This document shows, one piece after another, positions 1 through 39,271 of a stretch of 64,000 nt of DNA. The number at the start of each line of letters is the position of its first letter. The first letter of the stretch is position 1. Below the pieces are notes generated by a model. That model ran no database searches, was not told the origin of the DNA, and saw nothing but the letters and a program-made list of their open reading frames with translations. A program made the translations under genes and the position numbers. Source of the DNA: Verrucomicrobiota bacterium (GTDB lineage: Bacteria > Verrucomicrobiota > Verrucomicrobiia > Verrucomicrobiales > Akkermansiaceae); the NCBI GenBank assembly GCA_004293285.1, contig RDYF01000026.1:6812-70811 (forward strand), read 5' to 3'.

Positions 1-2452
1 CTTGGCCGATGCGATTCGGACCACCGCCGAGGATGATGATTTTCTTCTTCTCCGAGCAACGCGCTTCATTTTCCTCGCCATAAGACGAGTAGAAATACGG
101 GGTGTATGCTTCGAACTCCGCCGCGCAGGTGTCGACCAATCGATACGTCGGAATGATGCCCGCAGCCTTTCGTTCCGCGCGCACTTGATCTTCCGTCGTC
201 CCCTGCGCCTTGGCGATTTGGCGATCCGAGAAACCGAGTTTCTTCCAGCGTCGGAGGACAGGCGTCCCGCCTGTCTGGGCCGACGGGCTTCCAGCCTGTC
301 GCGTGTGGTTGACCAATGAATGAGGCGCATGCAATCCAAAGGAATTTTCCGGCATGTCCTTGGTATTGCCCGAGATGTAACGGCGGAAGTCCATCAAATC
401 CTCGGAATGGCGAATGATCGTGTCATACGATTCTTCCATCCAAACTTGTCCTTCCGCGTTGATTGCTTTGTTGAGTTCCTTGGCTGTGAAAGATTTCCAC
501 GAATGCAAAATATCGGCGAGCGTGTGATTTCCGATAGGCTTGACAATCACATGAACGTGATTCGGCATGACCACATAGCTATCAAGAATGTAGCGATCGC
601 CATGGAAGAACTTCAGTGCATTCTCCACGATCGACCGCGAGGCAGGATCGCGCAAAATGCAGCTACCATGTCCGGCATCGAGCCACTTCTCCATCGTATC
701 GCGGAAGCGAAGGATAAACTGGCGCTGCGTCTGGAAACTCCAGGGTTGAGGGTGATTTTTGTGGAATAGATCCAGTTCCTTTTGCCAATCTTGGAGGACC
801 GTTGCGGGAAGGGAGTCGGCGAGGCGAAAGGTCACAAAATAACAGCATCCGTCTTGCTGCCAGTGCGGGAGATGACGGAAAGTTTTTTCGATCGGAAGAT
901 TCTCCGCTAACGGCAAAAATGTTTCCGCAGGGAACATTTGTGTGCGATCAGGAGACTGAAGGCCTTCTGGATTTTGACAGGCGGGACGCCCGTCTGCCGA
1001 GACAGGCAGGATGCCTGTCCTCCCCAATTCCAAGCCTTCCTTGGCGATTTCTTCCAAATGGCGCAAGAACCAGGGATCGATGGCGGTGAGGTCAAAAATT
1101 TCCTCCACCGAGTAACCGGCGACAAAGGCCGTTTGCAGCCAGAAAATGCGTTCGGCATTCGGCACGCGCAGATTGCGCTCAATCTCCTCGCGACTCGGAG
1201 AGACGGGTGCCTTGCTATCGAAGCCAAAGCCCCAGCGTCCGGTTTCCAGCGAACGAAGGCATTTTTGCATCGACTCCTTGAACGTGCGACCGATGGCCAT
1301 GGCCTCGCCGACCGACTTCATCGAGGTCGTCAGCACGGGATTGGCGGCGGTGAATTTTTCAAAAGTGAAACGCGGGATCTTCGTGACCACGTAGTCGATG
1401 GTCGGTTCAAACGACGCCGGTGTCTCGCGGGTGATGTCATTGCGAATTTCATCCAGCGTATAACCCACGGCCAGTTTGGCGGCGATTTTGGCAATGGGGA
1501 AGCCCGTTGCCTTCGAAGCGAGAGCTGACGAACGCGAGACGCGGGGGTTCATTTCAATAACGATCATGCGTCCGGTTTTCGGATCGGTGGCGAACTGGAT
1601 GTTCGAGCCGCCCGTTTCCACGCCAATTTCGCGAATGACAGCGAACGAGGCATCGCGCATGATTTGGTATTCGCGATCGCTCAGCGTTTGGATCGGTGCC
1701 ACGGTGATCGAGTCGCCCGTGTGCACGCCCATGGGATCGAGGTTTTCGATCGAGCAAATCACCACGCAGTTGTCGGCGCGGTCGCGCATGACTTCCATTT
1801 CAAACTCCTTCCAACCAAGCAGCGATTCCTCCACCAGCACCTCGCTGACGGGGGAAAGATCGAGCCCGCGGGTGATGATTTCTTCAAACTCCTCGCGATT
1901 GTAGGCAATGCCGCCGCCTTGACCGCCGAGCGTGAAAGCGGGGCGAATGATCAGCGGGTAGCGTCCGATTTTTTCGGCAATGGCACGCGCCTCTTCCATC
2001 GTGTGCGCGGTGCCCGATTGCGGCACATCGAGGCCGATTTTCAGCATCGCATCCTTAAAGCGCTGGCGGTCCTCGCCTTTATCAATGGCATCGGCATTCG
2101 CTCCGATCATACGCACGCCGTGCTTTTCCAGAGTGCCGGATTTGAAAAGCGACATGGAGGTATTCAGTGCCGTCTGACCGCCGAGAGTGGGCAATAGGGC
2201 ATCGGGTTTCTCGCGGATGATGATTTTTTCCACGACCTCCGGTGTGATGGGCTCGATGTAAGTGCGGAACGCGAATTCCGGGTCGGTCATGATGGTAGCC
2301 GGATTGGAATTCACCAGCACCACTTGATAACCTTCCTCGCGCAGAGCTTTGCAGGCCTGAACACCCGAATAGTCAAACTCACAACCTTGACCAATAACGA
2401 TGGGGCCGGAGCCGATGACGAGAATTTTCTGAATCGAGGTGTCTTTGGGCAT
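1..2452 (-). CDS. carB: Carbamoyl-phosphate synthase large subunit. Only the N-terminal part is in the window; the 3' end lies beyond the window start. It carries a ~250-codon in-frame foreign insert.
   Basis: ATG at 2452-2450. I checked every triplet of this minus frame down to position 2 and found no stop (817 codons). It is missing from the ORF track only because it runs off the window. [37 protein letters not shown]..., ...[65 protein letters not shown]... and ...[25 protein letters not shown]...[15 protein letters not shown] are collinear with E. coli CarB. Confidence 0.9.
257..300. repeat. REP-like hairpin doublet (3' side of the RAYT in gene orientation)
   Basis: 257-275 is GACAGGCG-TCC-CGCCTGTC, a perfect 8-bp stem. 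After a 6-nt spacer, 282-300 is GACGGGCT-TCC-AGCCTGTC, with one stem mismatch. Confidence 0.85.
976..1019. repeat. REP-like hairpin doublet (5' side of the RAYT in gene orientation), inverted relative to 257-300
   Basis: 976-994 is GACAGGCG-GGA-CGCCCGTC, with one mismatch. After a 6-nt spacer, 1001-1019 is GACAGGCA-GGA-TGCCTGTC, a perfect stem. The loops are GGA here versus TCC at the other end, so the two doublets are in reverse-complement arrangement. Confidence 0.85.
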
Positions 2453-2565
2453 AAGCGTAGTGGCGGGTGTAAACTCGCAGGGATTTGGCAGTTCAACGGC
2501 AATTTGTAAAGGATTGGATGCGGAAAAAATGATTTTTCTGCGTCCGTAAGGCGGCAGCACAGGAA

Positions 2566-5037
2566 TTACTCGGCATCGATGCGGAAAGGCATGGAGACAT
2601 CGGGGAAATCCTTGAGCGTGAAGTTGATCATGAATCCGTATTCACTGCGGATCCGGTTGTCGCGACGCATCAAGCCGGCGCTGACAATCCAGTTTTCAAA
2701 ATTGCGGTGCATGGTGTATTGCTCCATCTCCAAGGTGTCGTCGGCAAATTCCCATTGCTGCAATAGACCAAAGCCCCAGTTTTCGTTGATGCGCCAATAG
2801 GCTCGGAAATTGATCCGATTGGAGTCGAGCAGGAACGGGTGGTTGTCGAGCATGCGCTGCTGCACCGCAAACTCAAAATTCGGGGTCGGCATGAAGCGTA
2901 AGCCGGTGGTGAACTCGTTGTAGCCCGAACCAGAACCGAAAATCGGGAACTGCAGCTGCCAATCGACCGCCATCCACGGCAAGGGCTGAAAGGTGATGTC
3001 TTGGTAGAGGTTGGAAAATTCGCGATTGAGCTCGGGGTCGTCGATGTAGCTATCGAGATAGGTATCAGTGAAAAGCCACTGATGCGTGCCGCCGTCACGC
3101 TGCGTCAGGAGTCGATTGCGGAAGCCGAGTCGCACAAGGTTCCAGTTGTTCAGGTCATCGATGGCGGTGAAGCGACCGACGCGGATGGGCACGGGGCGGG
3201 TGAAAAAGGTCAGTCGATCAATCTGCGGCGTGCTGGGATCGAGCGAGCTCACCGAGAGATAGGACCAGTGTGCATAGGGCTGGAGGGTGTGCCGCACGCC
3301 ATTGACACCGAGGCTGCTGATGCGGAAATCGGGGTAGTCTTTTTGCAGCTTAAACGAAGCCTCGAGCCCCAGCGACATCATGCCGCGATCGGTATCACCC
3401 GCTACGCCCGAGGCATCGAAATAACGATTGTAGCCCGCTCCCGCGTGAGGAGCGAGATGCAGCCAGTCGGAGATCGTCCACTGTGTGGCAAAGTCTTGGT
3501 ACGTGTGAAAGCGCGAGTATTCCGGGTTGGTGAGCTGACGATAGAGCGTCTCATACTGCGGGTCGCCGGGAGGCAGGGCGCGCAATTGCCCAATCAGAAA
3601 TTGCTCATAGCGCCCCACTTGCGGCAGCATGCGCTGATAGGTGGGATCGGACTCAGGCAAGGTCAGTAAAGGATCCAACAGCGTGTCACGGGTGGGATCG
3701 GCCATGTTTTCCTGGGCCACGGTGAAACTCGTTTGTCCCTCGTGCTGCAGGGCACCGCCGAAGATGGGGCGACGGATGTGATCGAAGGAAATCTCGGGCG
3801 AGCGAGAATCCGCGCGATAGAAGTCATTCACCCGCAGACGCGCTAGTCCGGTGAACAGGGTGGTTTCATCCCGACGCGTAAAAAAGATGGTGTTATCGGG
3901 CTGTGAGTTGTCGCGGTAAAAGCGCGGATCGAAGTCCTCGAGGAAATTGTTGTCGCTCAGGATATGCAGATCGTAGTTGAGAGCATATTCAGCATCTTTG
4001 TTCCAAGGGTCTCGAAATTCCAAGGGAATCCGATACTGGAACTCTGCGCGATAACGATTCGGATCAATCGGGCCGCGGGGAATGCCCGAGCGAGTGATGG
4101 TGGGATCGAGGTCATCGGCGTAGTAGAATTTCATCCAGCCGAGATTGGGATTGTCCGCGAGTCGGGTATCGAAAAGATCCACGCCCGTAGCGAGACCGCG
4201 TCGACTCCGTGCATCGAGGTGCCAGCGCGAGAGCAGCCACGGTTTTTTGCCACCGAGAAAGGCGTTGTCAGCATCGCCCAGCATGATGCCGTAATTTTGC
4301 AGCAGGTAAAAGCCGAGGTTCGTTCGACCACCGGGAAGGAACCGATAGCCGAGCTGGCCATTGAGCGGCTGGCTGAGATAGGGCAGCCAAAAAATCGGGG
4401 TATCGCCAATGAAGAGCTTCAGGTCATCAAACACCACCTTTTCCCCGGGGTAGAGAGTAGTGCGATTCGCTCGCAGCCAATAGTGCGGCAGCTCGACGTC
4501 ATTGGTCGTGATCCCCGCATTTTCGCCAACGAGAATGCGCTCGCCATTTTCATCCATCACGGCATCGAACGAGCCCGCTTCGAGGATGATCGGGTCATAG
4601 CTCACACTGAGACGCGAGGTTTCGAGCTTTTGCGTTTTCAGATCATAAGTCACGCGCTCACCACGTTGGATCATGGGCCCGTTGAAAATGCTGACATGGC
4701 CCTGCAGCAGATACGTTTGGCGATCGAGATCGAGAATCGCTTCATCAGCAAAAACCTCCTCGCCGCGATTCGTCTTCAGCTCAATCGGACCCGAGATGCG
4801 GAAGCGGCGATTGCTGGCATCGAGCGGCTCGATTTTCCCTTGGAGCGAAAGATTGACCCCAGTGGGCAGCTCCGAAGAAACCTGGTGAGGATCGACATGG
4901 GCCGCAGGAGCGGGCGCGGTGAGCTCCGGAATTTCCACCGCAGCGGGTGGCGCGAGATCAGAAGACTCAGGTTCCTGAGCAAAAGCACCCACCAAAAAAG
5001 GCAAAAACCAAAAGCACCAAGAACCCCTCATGAACAA
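2566..5037 (-). CDS. lptD: LPS-assembly outer-membrane protein LptD/OstA-like (823 aa)
   Basis: Signal peptide [22 protein letters not shown]. The OstA-like N-terminal jellyroll pattern is [59 protein letters not shown]. This is followed by ~650 aa rich in aromatic/Gly/Asp beta-barrel-type sequence. The size fits LptD. Confidence 0.55.
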
Positions 5038-5170: not shown

Positions 5171-5351
5171 CATCCAACATCCAACATCCAACATCCAACA
5201 TCCAACATCCAACATCCAACATCCAACATCCAACATCCAACATCCAACATCCAACATCCAACATCCAAATCCAACATCCAACATCCAACATCCAAAATCC
5301 AAAATCCAAAATCCAAAATCCAAAATCCAAAATTCAAAATTCAAAATTCAA
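5171..5351. repeat. Compound heptanucleotide tandem repeat: (CATCCAA)14, one 6-nt unit, (CATCCAA)3, (AATCCAA)5, (AATTCAA)3
   Basis: Units were counted base by base: 5171-5268, 5269-5274, 5275-5295, 5296-5330 and 5331-5351. On the minus strand, which is the sense strand of both flanking genes, the units read TTGGATG / TTGGATT / TTGAATT. Confidence 0.98.
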
Positions 5352-6049
5352 AACCCCCCATTCCCCATTCCTGAATCGAAGGAAGGGTCGAGCTCTAGGA
5401 CTCCGTCTTCGATTTTGATGCGAGCCATTTCTTCAATGCCCAGACGGATTTCCTCGGGAAATGCTTCGGCCAGGGCGATGTAGCTGGGACGCACGAAAAG
5501 CATGAATCCCTGCGGCAGGAGCAGTCGACCAAAGCGTCCGCCTTGTCGCACGAAGGGCAGAACGGGCATGGGGCCGCCATCGATATCGACATGCGTGACG
5601 AGGGCGCCGTCGCTGCTTTCGGTTTGTTCCAGCTTAAGAAAGATCGAGCTGGTCAAGGTCAGTCCCGCGGCGCGACGCACCATGATCAGTTCAGCGCGTT
5701 CCTTTTCCAACCGCACCAGCACTTTTTCGAGCGTGACCAGACCCGCCAGCCAGCCCTTTTGCTCGGCGACCAGAGTTCGGGCAAAGTAGCCATTGATTTC
5801 CGCTTCCGTGAGACGCAGCGGATAGGAGCCCGAGATCGACTGAGAAAACACCGCCTTCAGATCACGCACTGGCGCAGCGGAAGAACTCGGATCTTGGACG
5901 ACAACCAAATCCGACAAATCTTGCGCACGAAACACCTGCACCAAACCCCACGATAAGGTCGAAATGATCAAAAACACCAAAAACAACCCAGCGCGGGGAA
6001 TGTCGCGCGGGCGTTTTCTGGATGCCGGCATGTCGCGCAACCTCGTCAT
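5348..6049 (-). CDS. Hypothetical membrane-anchored protein (233 aa)
   Basis: ORF with a basic N-terminus and one TM helix (GLFLVFLIISTLSWGLVQVF). I recognise no family. Its stop codon lies in the last unit of the heptamer repeat. Confidence 0.5.
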   Translation of the reverse strand: MTRLRDMPASRKRPRDIPRAGLFLVFLIISTLSWGLVQVFRAQDLSDLVVVQDPSSSAAPVRDLKAVFSQSISGSYPLRLTEAEINGYFARTLVAEQKGWLAGLVTLEKVLVRLEKERAELIMVRRAAGLTLTSSIFLKLEQTESSDGALVTHVDIDGGPMPVLPFVRQGGRFGRLLLPQGFMLFVRPSYIALAEAFPEEIRLGIEEMARIKIEDGVLELDPSFDSGMGNGGF

Positions 6050-36176: not shown

Positions 36177-36323
36177 GGAGAAGTGATCAGTGGCAAATGA
36201 TCAGGGAAAAGGGAATCGCGTGAGAGCTTGGAGAGGGCTTGTGCTGAGGGCATGGAAAGAATGGAGGCAGGGAGGCGAGACGCCTCCGCCACGACTACGA
36301 ATCACTCCGCACTGCCTACGGCA

Positions 36324-37283
36324 TCAAATCTCCTGCACGGGGAGGTTAGCGCATTCCTCGCGAAGCTTCTCAGCGAGCAGCGTGCTGAGATAGCGTTCCG
36401 AGCTCGAGCAACCGATCGTAACAATGCGTTTGCCGGCAAATTCTGGGCGTTTTGCCACCTGCATGGCAGCCCAGACATTGGCACCCGTGGAGATGCCTGC
36501 GGGAATGCCTTCATCCTGAGCAAGCGCGCGAGCGGTTTCAAAAGCGTCCTCATTAGTGACCTGGATGACCTCATCGATGATCTCGACATTCAGGTTTTTC
36601 GGGATAAAGCCCGCGCCGATGCCTTGAATCATGTGTGGGCCAGGAGCGCCGCCCGAGATGACAGGGCTGGCGGTCGGTTCAACAGCAAACGTTTTCATGG
36701 CGCAGCGTTGTTTCAAGACTTCCGAAACACCCGTAATCGTGCCGCCGGTGCCGACACCTGCGACAAAGGCATCGATCTGCCCATCCGTAGCCGCCCAGAT
36801 TTCCTCGGCGGTGGTTTCGCGGTGGACTTGAGGGTTCGCGGGGTTATCAAACTGTCCAGGGCCAAAAGCACCGGGAGTTTCCTCCAGCATTTTTTTCGCC
36901 ATAGCAATCGCACCGCCCATGCCGCGGGCGCGAGGAGTGAGGACAATTTCGGCACCGAGCAAACGCAGCAGCACACGACGCTCCACCGACATGCTTTCAG
37001 GCATGGTGAGAATGCAGCGATAGCCCTTCGAGCGAGCGACAAAAGCGAGAGCGATACCCGTATTGCCCGACGTCGGTTCAATGATCAGACCGCCAGGTTT
37101 CAGCAAGCCATCGCGCTCTGCGGCTTCGATCATCGCCTTGCCAATCCGGTCCTTCACGCTAAAAAGCGGGTTAAAGAACTCGGCCTTCACGCAGATTTCG
37201 GCATTCAGGCCCTTGGTCACGTGATTCAGACGGATGAGGGGCGTATTGCCCACGGTGTCGACCATGCTATTCGCGATTTTCAT
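36324..37283 (-). CDS. cysK: Cysteine synthase (CysK/CysM family), second paralogue
   Basis: [22 protein letters not shown]...[29 protein letters not shown]...[38 protein letters not shown] used the internal ATG at 37283. Confidence 0.85.
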
Positions 37284-37388
37284 AATTGTGAGGAGTAAAG
37301 AGTGAGAGGTGAGAGCTGGAGGTACTGAAAGGTCTGTTCTTTGCCCTTTGGAACAAAAAAGATGGGGGTGGCTCAAGCGTGGCTGCGA

Positions 37389-39133: not shown

Positions 39134-39162
39134 AAAAAAAACGGGCGTCATGCGACGCCCGT
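39134..39162 (-). terminator. Rho-independent terminator (minus strand)
   Basis: Stem CGGGCGTC / GACGCCCG (39142-39149 / 39154-39161) with a 4-nt loop, followed on the minus strand by T8 (plus-strand A-run at 39134-39141). Confidence 0.75.
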
Positions 39163-39271
39163 TTGCGAGAGAAGGAAAAAAGAGGCTGGGAATGCTTATT
39201 CCTTACCGAGCTGCTGGGCGGTCCAGGGGGCAGCTTGGTCTTTGTATTTTTCGCGAGCCGCTTTGACTTGC

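Follow-up and report, generated by a model that had tools for sequence, protein, structure and literature searches.

The carB gene of the window carries an in-frame insert

The DNA analysed here (the window) is a 64,000-nt stretch from a Verrucomicrobiota bacterium of the Akkermansiaceae (assembly GCA_004293285.1, contig RDYF01000026.1, positions 6,812–70,811 of the forward strand). It opens inside carB, which lies on the minus strand and contains, within its reading frame, a transposase of the REP-associated tyrosine transposase family (RAYT; REP, repetitive extragenic palindrome) bracketed by REP hairpins. The carB frame runs from position 2452 to 2 and comprises 817 codons without a stop. 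The 5′ part of the gene (1024..2452, minus strand; assigned by translation, Pfam and alignment with E. coli CarB, 1bxr) provides the start codon, a typical CarB N-terminus, the first pre-ATP-grasp and ATP-grasp domains and the first two-thirds of the oligomerisation domain. Pfam places CPSase_L_D1 at residues 7–125, CPSase_L_D2 at 128–335 and CPSase_L_D3 at 427–479, the last of these covering only positions 2–54 of the 80 in the profile before the insert begins; Y1_Tnp is matched at residues 622–694 of the same translation. The continuation of carB (2..252, minus strand; translation and 1bxr alignment) encodes what is left of the oligomerisation domain, then the beginning of the second synthetase half, through the motif GGGPNRIGQ and past the window edge. 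This segment is 85.7% identical to the CarB of a relative without the RAYT (P0140, see below). The domain order in the window is D1, D2, D3, insert, rest of D3 and start of the second half.

In the alignment with E. coli CarB the upstream flank corresponds to residues 423–487 and the downstream flank to residues 488–574, and the insertion point is a loop at residues ∼ 476–488 in the oligomerisation domain. A first-pass annotation, made from the letters of the window, had reported a carB frame open for all 817 codons and a same-strand, phase-preserving, stop-free insertion into the oligomerisation domain; both are borne out by the translation and the 1bxr alignment. The 3′ end of carB lies beyond the window, and neither a second carB nor a second RAYT copy is found within its 64 kb.

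The inserted unit occupies positions 253–1023 (771 nt, 257 codons), an extent set by its terminal inverted repeat, GGAGGACAGGC...GCCTGTCCTCC, with the outer tags GGAG...CTCC. The limits proposed earlier (∼ 257–1019) located the insert approximately and are refined by these ends. The order within the unit, read on the minus strand, is two REP hairpins, the RAYT and two inverted REP hairpins. The 5′ REP arm (976..1023; recognized by sequence, pattern search and folding of single-stranded DNA) consists of the tag GGAG, an outer hairpin GACAGGCA-TCC-TGCCTGTC (1001–1019) and an inner hairpin GACGGGCG-TCC-CGCCTGTC (976–994). There follow the 5′ linker coding segment (881..975; translation, comparison with relatives, AlphaFold2), which includes a non-conserved ATG at 937–935, the RAYT catalytic core of 177 aa from FRHLPHW to NTKDMP (350..880; Pfam, NCBIfam, profile match to 4er8, AlphaFold2/Foldseek) and the 3′ linker coding segment (301..349; translation), which has no stop codon. 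The 3′ REP arm (253..300; sequence, pattern search, folding) is inverted with respect to the 5′ arm and is made up of an inner hairpin GACAGGCT-GGA-AGCCCGTC (282–300), an outer hairpin GACAGGCG-GGA-CGCCTGTC (257–275) and the tag CTCC.

The two arms are inverted copies of each other, identical at 42 of 48 positions, and their closing base pairs differ in a compensatory way (G-C versus A-T, T-A versus G-C). When the window was searched with the 19-mer GACAGGCGGGACGCCTGTC, allowing up to three mismatches, five matches were obtained, all at the four hairpin positions, against a chance expectation of none. As single-stranded DNA the arms fold into paired hairpins (z of −2.2 to −3.6; z = −3.3 for the 5′ arm). 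Both are read through in the carB frame as peptide (15 and 14 residues), i.e. palindromic repeats are translated in frame within an open host open reading frame (ORF), the feature by which intragenic REPs and Rickettsia palindromic elements (RPEs) are recognized.

The insert has the motifs and fold of a RAYT

The insert is a RAYT with the Y1 transposase fold. Taken alone it matches Pfam Y1_Tnp with 25.6 bits (cut-off 23), and its best NCBIfam model is REP_Tyr_transpos (E = 2.2e-15); the NCBIfam IS200 model reaches 19.5 bits against a cut-off of 55. The motifs NHVHV, VWMEE and RRYISGN are present in the canonical order and align to PEHMH, WQ and DYI of E. coli TnpA-REP (4er8). The HUH motif (H-V-H) is encoded at 551–559 and the catalytic tyrosine at 377–379. 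All 45 columns that are invariant in the RAYT clade described below are retained in the window RAYT, and the profile of that clade, compared with solved structures, finds 4er8 as its best match, with HUH, WQ and the Tyr helix aligned.

An AlphaFold2 model of residues 418–817 of the window protein was built with 36 aligned sequences. The RAYT domain (model residues ∼ 95–295) has predicted local distance difference test (pLDDT) values of 85–96, and the CarB helices flanking the insert are confident on both sides. Values below 50 are found at model residues 65–87, which take in the 5′ REP arm together with the first part of the 5′ linker, and at residues 301–314, a stretch that starts within the 3′ REP arm just past the 3′ linker segment. 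In a Foldseek search the top match is 4er8_A (E = 1.3e-5), the E. coli TnpA-REP in complex with a REP hairpin; the IS608, ISDra2 and IS200 transposases come next. The RAYT motifs quoted in the first-pass annotation were all found in the translation, and the checks it had proposed agree with its identification: the profile search for a Y1 transposase gave a match above the Pfam cut-off with REP_Tyr_transpos as the best NCBIfam model, and structure prediction gave an independent, confident domain between linkers of low pLDDT. Its broader claim, that a complete RAYT with REP arms is carried within carB as a tolerated, fused or domesticated passenger, is one on which sequence, fold and comparative evidence concur.

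Other identities were rejected. An autonomous IS200/IS605 element is at odds with the weak match to the IS200 model, the single copy in the window and the absence of tnpB from the unit. No Hint or intein family of Pfam matches the insert, and the junctions (ELG/RTG and TPV/LRR, the slash marking the insertion boundary) lack splicing residues, which speaks against an intein; the junction residues also vary among lineages. An IStron or other self-splicing intron was dismissed because no Rfam family is found at E ≤ 1 in window 1–2600.

The arrangement recurs at the same CarB site

A protein search with the insert returned 3654 matches, several of which also carry CarB domains, and a search with the 400 aa spanning the junctions returned ∼ 25 proteins that read CarB-RAYT-CarB in a single frame. 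Scanning one genome per species with a profile of the RAYT core gave 80 loci, of which the best match to the window RAYT is 61% identical (L003); a metagenome scan with the insert gave one distant relative, 45% identical. A RAYT lies at the exact CarB position of the window in 14 other Verrucomicrobiota loci (12 from the genome scan and two via protein matches), and the frame is kept at both junctions in all 14. Lineages of Chthoniobacter and Udaeobacter are among the carriers (L013, L014, L017). One of them, L011, is a complete CarB ORF of 1355 aa that has every CarB domain plus Y1_Tnp. Among the same-site sequences there are 13 different lengths between the WFL motif of CarB and the LPHW motif of the RAYT, and 15 different lengths between MPNHVH and the GFSD motif of CarB, all of them frame-preserving. 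The a priori chance that a single insertion is on the same strand, in phase and free of stops is ∼ 1 in 18 or less.

The same-site loci have no conserved Met between either junction and the adjacent domain. The ATG at 937–935, which had been put forward as a start for separate translation of the RAYT, is unique to the window and occurs in no relative, and the window frame runs on beyond the RAYT without a stop. The idea that a free RAYT is translated separately thus finds no support, and we abandoned it.

Comparison with orthologues does identify a close CarB relative in which the RAYT is absent (P0140). The insertion is however not singular, as the 14 further loci show. The first-pass annotation had also considered that related carB genes might all hold an ancient equivalent segment devoid of hairpins; the segment is indeed old, but the hairpins are present.

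Some loci require care. L001 and L002 are error-prone long-read contigs and were used only locally. The carB::RAYT protein P0134 has compensated frameshifts in its RAYT, which might have suggested that the frame is kept while the RAYT decays; its contig is a long-read assembly on which carB is broken into three gene calls, so the shifts are probably sequencing errors and P0134 was not used. L005 and L010 appeared as candidates for frameshifted carB loci, a classification that was rejected on inspection as they represent other sites or hosts and are both in frame.

Inheritance of the unit

In a neighbour-joining tree the RAYT cores from the carB site, including that of the window, form one clade. 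Pairwise identities of the CarB flanks and of the RAYT cores are correlated (Mantel r = 0.48, with none of 2000 permutations as high), the mean identity being 76% for CarB and 58% for the RAYT. The ratio of non-synonymous to synonymous substitution rates (dN/dS) was estimated by the Nei-Gojobori method for five informative orthologous pairs. It is 0.06–0.25 for the RAYT core (dS 0.07–2.1), 0.04–0.15 for the CarB flanks (dS 0.44–1.1) and 0.45–0.59 for the linkers (dS 0.11–0.45). The low dS of the linkers points to constraint on the nucleotides, that is on the hairpins, and not on the peptide. Perfect stems of 7–9 bp with 3-nt loops are present at every same-site locus, and the stems differ by lineage (GACAGGC, CACAGGC, TCAGGC, AGTCAGGC and CAGCAGGC), so pairing has been maintained by compensatory change. 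The 5′ tags vary as well: GGAG in the window and L003, GTAG in L009 and L028, GTGG in L014 and L017, and GTAA in L011 and L013.

The unit is thus an old, vertically inherited insertion whose transposase, hairpins, CarB halves and reading frame are all under selection. The first-pass annotation had treated the window as a single event; instead the arrangement is old, inherited vertically and common to many Verrucomicrobiota.

Absence and relocation of the RAYT

The CarB fragment of P0140 has no RAYT and is 81% identical to the window CarB over the shared region. For comparison, the insert-bearing L003 is 84% identical and all other carriers are 57–70% identical. The loop of P0140 (L085:61-2151, codons ∼ 100–115) contains one in-frame hairpin, GCGGGCG-CCC-CGCCCGC, which is translated as the peptide SAGAPPAS. 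The simplest reading is that this hairpin is the footprint of RAYT loss via a frame-preserving deletion that left one REP behind; insertion of a REP alone is a possible alternative. In the carB gene of L013 (L013:4447-8586) an additional REP-derived in-frame insert, AFQADPSGKLPACSP, is located ∼ 20 codons downstream of the 3′ junction.

Two loci place RAYTs of the same group elsewhere. In L005:2-2302, from a metagenome-assembled genome (MAG) of Chthoniobacter sp. (JANPHJ010000184.1), an in-frame RAYT occupies a second carB site: it interrupts the ATP-grasp domain in the C-terminal half of the protein, with ...REAVEAGAGW before it and AEHPILVDHFLED after it. In L010:4986-6650, from a Verrucomicrobiae MAG (CAWIWB010000006.1), an in-frame RAYT splits the VitK2_biosynth domain of an MqnA-like menaquinone biosynthesis gene; this RAYT is sister to that of L007. 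Since the RAYTs of L005 and L010 both nest within the carB-site clade, the unit has relocated at least occasionally. In L007:1126-1960, and also in L005 and L010, the RAYT is situated between direct repeats of a three-hairpin module of ∼ 110 nt and not between simple inverted arms. The modules of this subclade have hairpin loops in both orientations, in effect a REPIN-like unit on each side.

RAYTs in other host genes

The stop-to-stop frame around the RAYT core was surveyed at the 80 genomic loci. At least 100 open codons are present on both sides of the core at 53 loci, upstream only at seven and downstream only at none; the RAYT is free-standing at 14 loci, and six are cut by contig ends. 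In two control frames ∼ 7% of extensions attain 100 codons per side. The earlier description of carB as a gene with an embedded RAYT stands, but the pattern reaches far beyond carB, with 53 of the 80 clade members in mid-ORF.

The hosts identified with Pfam are DnaE, PriA, a DinG-like helicase, SNF2 helicases, XseA, a CCA-adding or poly(A) polymerase, CarB, LeuRS, HsdR (at two different sites), restriction-modification enzymes of the Eco57I/MmeI type, adenosine deaminase, B12-binding radical SAM proteins and the MqnA-like enzyme. For example, the finger and HhH domains of DNA polymerase III alpha (DnaE) are separated by an in-frame RAYT in L047:564-5063, as are the 3′ DNA-binding and helicase domains of PriA in L008:5500-8388. 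Both proteins are essential for, or central to, replication and restart. A single 'leuS' host group was dropped because it contains two hosts and sites, LeuRS and a second class I synthetase with the ValRS-like motif DWCISRQ-WWGHRIP, which correspond to two RAYT clades. In L034:4651-7602 and L016:4645-7665 a single ORF contains a zinc-type alcohol dehydrogenase domain and a GFO/IDH/MocA oxidoreductase domain, with the RAYT between the two. As such domains are normally separate proteins, the unit may have fused two neighbouring genes there.

An exhaustive HMMER search of 1.84 billion cluster representatives gave 17,389 family members at E ≤ 1e-3. Among the best 150 of these, at least 100 aa of other sequence is present on both sides of the RAYT in 40 and on one side in 37. 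A Pfam scan of 39 mid-protein representatives matched 50 families, Y1_Tnp included; the commonest hosts were restriction-modification enzymes of the MmeI/Eco57I type (11 and 9 of the 39), and HsdR was also common. Loci such as L030 and L042 belong to this restriction-enzyme group. Several RAYT-only proteins of the clade bear the JGI label 'type I restriction enzyme R subunit', which has probably been carried over from fusions of this kind. Host-specific groups of RAYTs are mostly monophyletic in the neighbour-joining tree of cores, which argues that most insertions are old.

Dispersed hairpins in the relatives and other repeats in the window

GC-rich perfect hairpins occur on both flanks of the RAYT at 58 of the 80 clade loci, compared with 8% of control windows. 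Extra copies of these hairpins are found within ∼ 6 kb on either side at 33 of the 80 loci, in total 109 copies in 674 kb (one per ∼ 6 kb of flank on average). The flanking hairpins of the relatives are truly dispersed repeats.

Several other repeats in the window are recorded here as separate observations. The hairpin GGAGGCG-AGA-CGCCTCC (36271–36287) occurs once, resembles the carB REPs only weakly, through a common GGCG-GAC-GCC core, and was not counted as a REP. An ORF ends 71 nt upstream of it, at 36200, and a mechanical TTG-start ORF (36228–37298) overlaps it; the hairpin could be a diverged REP or just a terminator-like stem. The longest hairpin in the window is a terminator-like, perfect 11-bp stem, AAACGGGCGTC-ATGC-GACGCCCGTTT (39139–39164). 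A 7-nt tandem repeat, CATCCAA, with ∼ 23–26 copies (also scored with a 21-nt period) extends over 5171–5353, where the only ORFs are mechanical ones that overlap on both strands.

Discussion

We consider it likely that a REPtron, that is a RAYT between inverted pairs of GTAG-type REP hairpins, entered a surface loop of CarB in frame and became fixed at an early date, in an ancestor of several Verrucomicrobiota lineages, and has since been inherited vertically and made as a domain of CarB. carB would be transcribed and translated straight through, giving one chain that consists of the N-terminal half of CarB, a disordered linker, the RAYT, a second disordered linker and the C-terminal half of CarB, with the linkers encoded by the REP arms. 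Having no conserved start, stop or promoter, the RAYT would exist only as a CarB domain, and its expression would follow that of carB. CarB function would be preserved because the unit is placed in a variable loop between helices and is attached by long flexible linkers. The RAYT itself may still be catalytically competent and act on single-stranded REP hairpins, by analogy with E. coli TnpA-REP. That enzyme is a monomer (PMC3479197), so a tethered single RAYT domain could plausibly work. Within an essential gene only an exact, frame-preserving deletion would remove the unit, which would account both for its persistence and for the single-hairpin footprint where the RAYT has been lost. We infer that a single chain is translated and that both the RAYT and the enlarged CarB are active; conservation of the frame, the absence of internal starts or stops shared among relatives, and purifying selection on the CarB halves together favour read-through over a pseudogene, removal before translation or separate translation.

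Four observations weigh against this interpretation. With REP_Tyr_transpos the insert scores 56.8 bits, short of the equivalog cut-off of 80. The Tyr region, YISGNT, deviates from the usual YIxxNP. Further copies of the window's own REP are absent from the remaining 63 kb of the window, in contrast to the related loci, so this RAYT may no longer have a REP population to act on. Finally, the frame is broken at the 3′ junction in P0004 and P0007, two carB-associated proteins of other assemblies, either through sequencing errors or as a sign that a two-piece CarB is tolerated.

The last point bears directly on the idea of a two-piece or processed enzyme, in which translation restarts inside or after the RAYT, or a protease cuts the linkers, and CarB functions as associated halves with the RAYT freed or attached to one of them. 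Naturally split carB occurs in some organisms, the insertion is located between two homologous synthetase halves, the linkers are predicted to be disordered, at seven of the 80 clade loci host sequence precedes the RAYT but does not follow it, and the frame break in P0004 and P0007, if real, implies a viable split CarB. We nevertheless regard a two-piece enzyme as unlikely, although the linkers may still be cut after translation: both junctions are in phase in the window and the 14 other loci despite many indels, which separate translation of the C-terminal half would not need, and there is neither a conserved Met or start before the RAYT or the C-terminal half of CarB nor a stop after the RAYT. 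Exaptation, where the RAYT fold has taken on a new function in CarB or elsewhere in the cell, for example in assembly, regulation or the binding of nucleic acids, the REPs are no longer mobilized and the hairpins persist for instance as mRNA structure, seems distinctly unlikely to us. It would be in keeping with strong purifying selection on a RAYT core that is fixed at one locus, with the absence of dispersed REPs from the 64-kb window and with the NT that replaces NP in the Tyr-region motif of the window and P0001. Against it, the HUH motif, the tyrosine and every clade-invariant residue are kept; the same RAYT clade resides in dozens of unrelated host families, which is difficult to reconcile with a CarB-specific role; the flanking hairpins of the relatives belong to dispersed families, as the 109 extra copies show; and the carB-clade RAYTs at the second carB site (L005) and in the MqnA-like gene (L010) imply continued mobility of the unit.

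Removal of the unit before translation, whether by RAYT-mediated precise excision of DNA in part of the population or from the mRNA via pairing of the arms, is in our view very unlikely. The arms are complementary at 42 of 48 nt and could pair in RNA or single-stranded DNA, and excision of the IS200/IS605 type is seamless. The frame of the insert would then be irrelevant, however, yet it is conserved everywhere, and the filled site is the consensus in all assemblies examined. No ribozyme or intron family is found in window 1–2600, and the stretches between junction and core, ∼ 140 nt at the 5′ end and ∼ 100 nt at the 3′ end, are much too short for the group I intron of an IStron, which measures several hundred nt. 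An ordinary insertional pseudogene or an assembly chimera, with a frame that is open by luck, is scarcely credible. For one sequence alone such luck is conceivable, at the ∼ 1 in 18 or less given above, but the same architecture is present in at least 14 independent assemblies, both CarB halves have dN/dS values of 0.04–0.15, the ORF of L011 is intact over 1355 aa and a second carB is absent from the window.

The fixed, co-translated REPtron that we prefer is best understood alongside known systems. With the REPtrons described so far (E. coli TnpA-REP, 4er8; Nunvar, 2010; Bertels and Rainey, 2011; Ton-Hoang, 2012; Quentin, 2018) it shares the HUH and Tyr motifs and the Y1 fold, as well as inverted REP hairpins with a GTAG-like 5′ tag at both ends. 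Vertical, housekeeping-like inheritance is a further common trait, described for RAYTs by Bertels et al. (2017). Known RAYTs are however free-standing extragenic genes, whereas the carB RAYT lies in phase within an essential gene and lacks a conserved start and stop of its own. Quentin et al. (2018) note REPs in frame within tnpA-REP genes, and state that long 'fusion' RAYT proteins were dropped from the analysis as errors, so these were not studied there; Bertels et al. (2017) do not mention fusions. No prior description of a RAYT carried in frame within a host gene was found in the open-access and bioRxiv literature searched. The statement of the first-pass annotation that no such description was known has held in these searches and in the main RAYT and REP papers.

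Intragenic REPs and RPEs (Ogata, 2000; Di Nocera, 2013, PMC3733652) are likewise short GC-rich palindromes that lie in frame and are translated as extra loops, and they share host types with the embedded RAYTs, namely replication and repair proteins and tRNA synthetases. The verrucomicrobium Opitutus terrae is the richest in intragenic GTAG REPs (PMC3733652). The single REPs in the carB gene of L013 and at the RAYT site of P0140 resemble such inserts. Intragenic REPs and RPEs are, however, non-coding repeats that add ∼ 10–80 aa, whereas the carB insert is a 257-aa unit with a folded, selected enzyme domain, the autonomous partner.

Inteins with homing endonucleases also place a DNA enzyme in frame in conserved, often essential hosts such as replication proteins and synthetases; they are co-translated and, like embedded RAYTs, hard to lose because imprecise deletion is lethal. 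They differ in having a Hint fold and splicing residues, both of which the carB insert lacks, so that it is presumably not spliced out, and in carrying a LAGLIDADG or HNH endonuclease at conserved active-site motifs, whereas embedded RAYTs are HUH tyrosine transposases in variable loops. IStrons, which combine a group I intron with IS200/IS605 genes, show that the same transposase superfamily can reside in host genes without inactivating them; they rely on RNA self-splicing, whereas the carB unit, in which no ribozyme was detected, keeps the frame open instead. SETMAR of primates is a host-transposase fusion that arose by domestication. Fusions of this type likewise have a transposase domain within a host protein under purifying selection, but they are terminal, arose by exon capture and are eukaryotic, whereas the carB RAYT is internal and bacterial, still has its recognition hairpins and is found again in dozens of hosts that are unrelated. 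The protein is thus itself a RAYT, a member of a known family; what is new is its genomic and expression mode, which is intein-like without splicing.

On balance we lean towards extending this view to the RAYT clade as a whole, which is present in Verrucomicrobiota, Kiritimatiellota, Lentisphaerota, Chloroflexota, Nitrospirota, Bacteroidota and others. Its members would follow an intein-like lifestyle without splicing, in which a REP-RAYT-REP unit that is open from end to end either targets permissive loops of large, often essential proteins or persists only there. The arms would double as DNA recognition hairpins and linker code, the transposase would be made only as a domain of its host, and the unit would be nearly undeletable.

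RAYTs and REPINs pose a puzzle in that RAYTs act as single-copy, vertically inherited host genes would, and it is unclear what maintains, expresses and restrains them. In the carB arrangement the RAYT would have given up its own expression signals; its dosage would be tied to a housekeeping gene and it would be protected from deletion. There is also a consequence for annotation, as fusion RAYT proteins were discarded as errors in a published survey, and some RAYT-only proteins bear a restriction-enzyme name at JGI. CarB, LeuRS, DnaE, PriA and other large proteins accept a folded 250-aa domain at defined loops and so provide a natural map of permissive insertion sites. The system is amenable to experiment: the function of the enlarged CarB, cutting of REPs by the tethered HUH domain and the effect of removing the insert can all be tested. 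If the proposal is true, embedding in frame would be a new route by which a DNA enzyme, domesticated or selfish, can persist, and would be widespread in nature as an origin of domain insertions.

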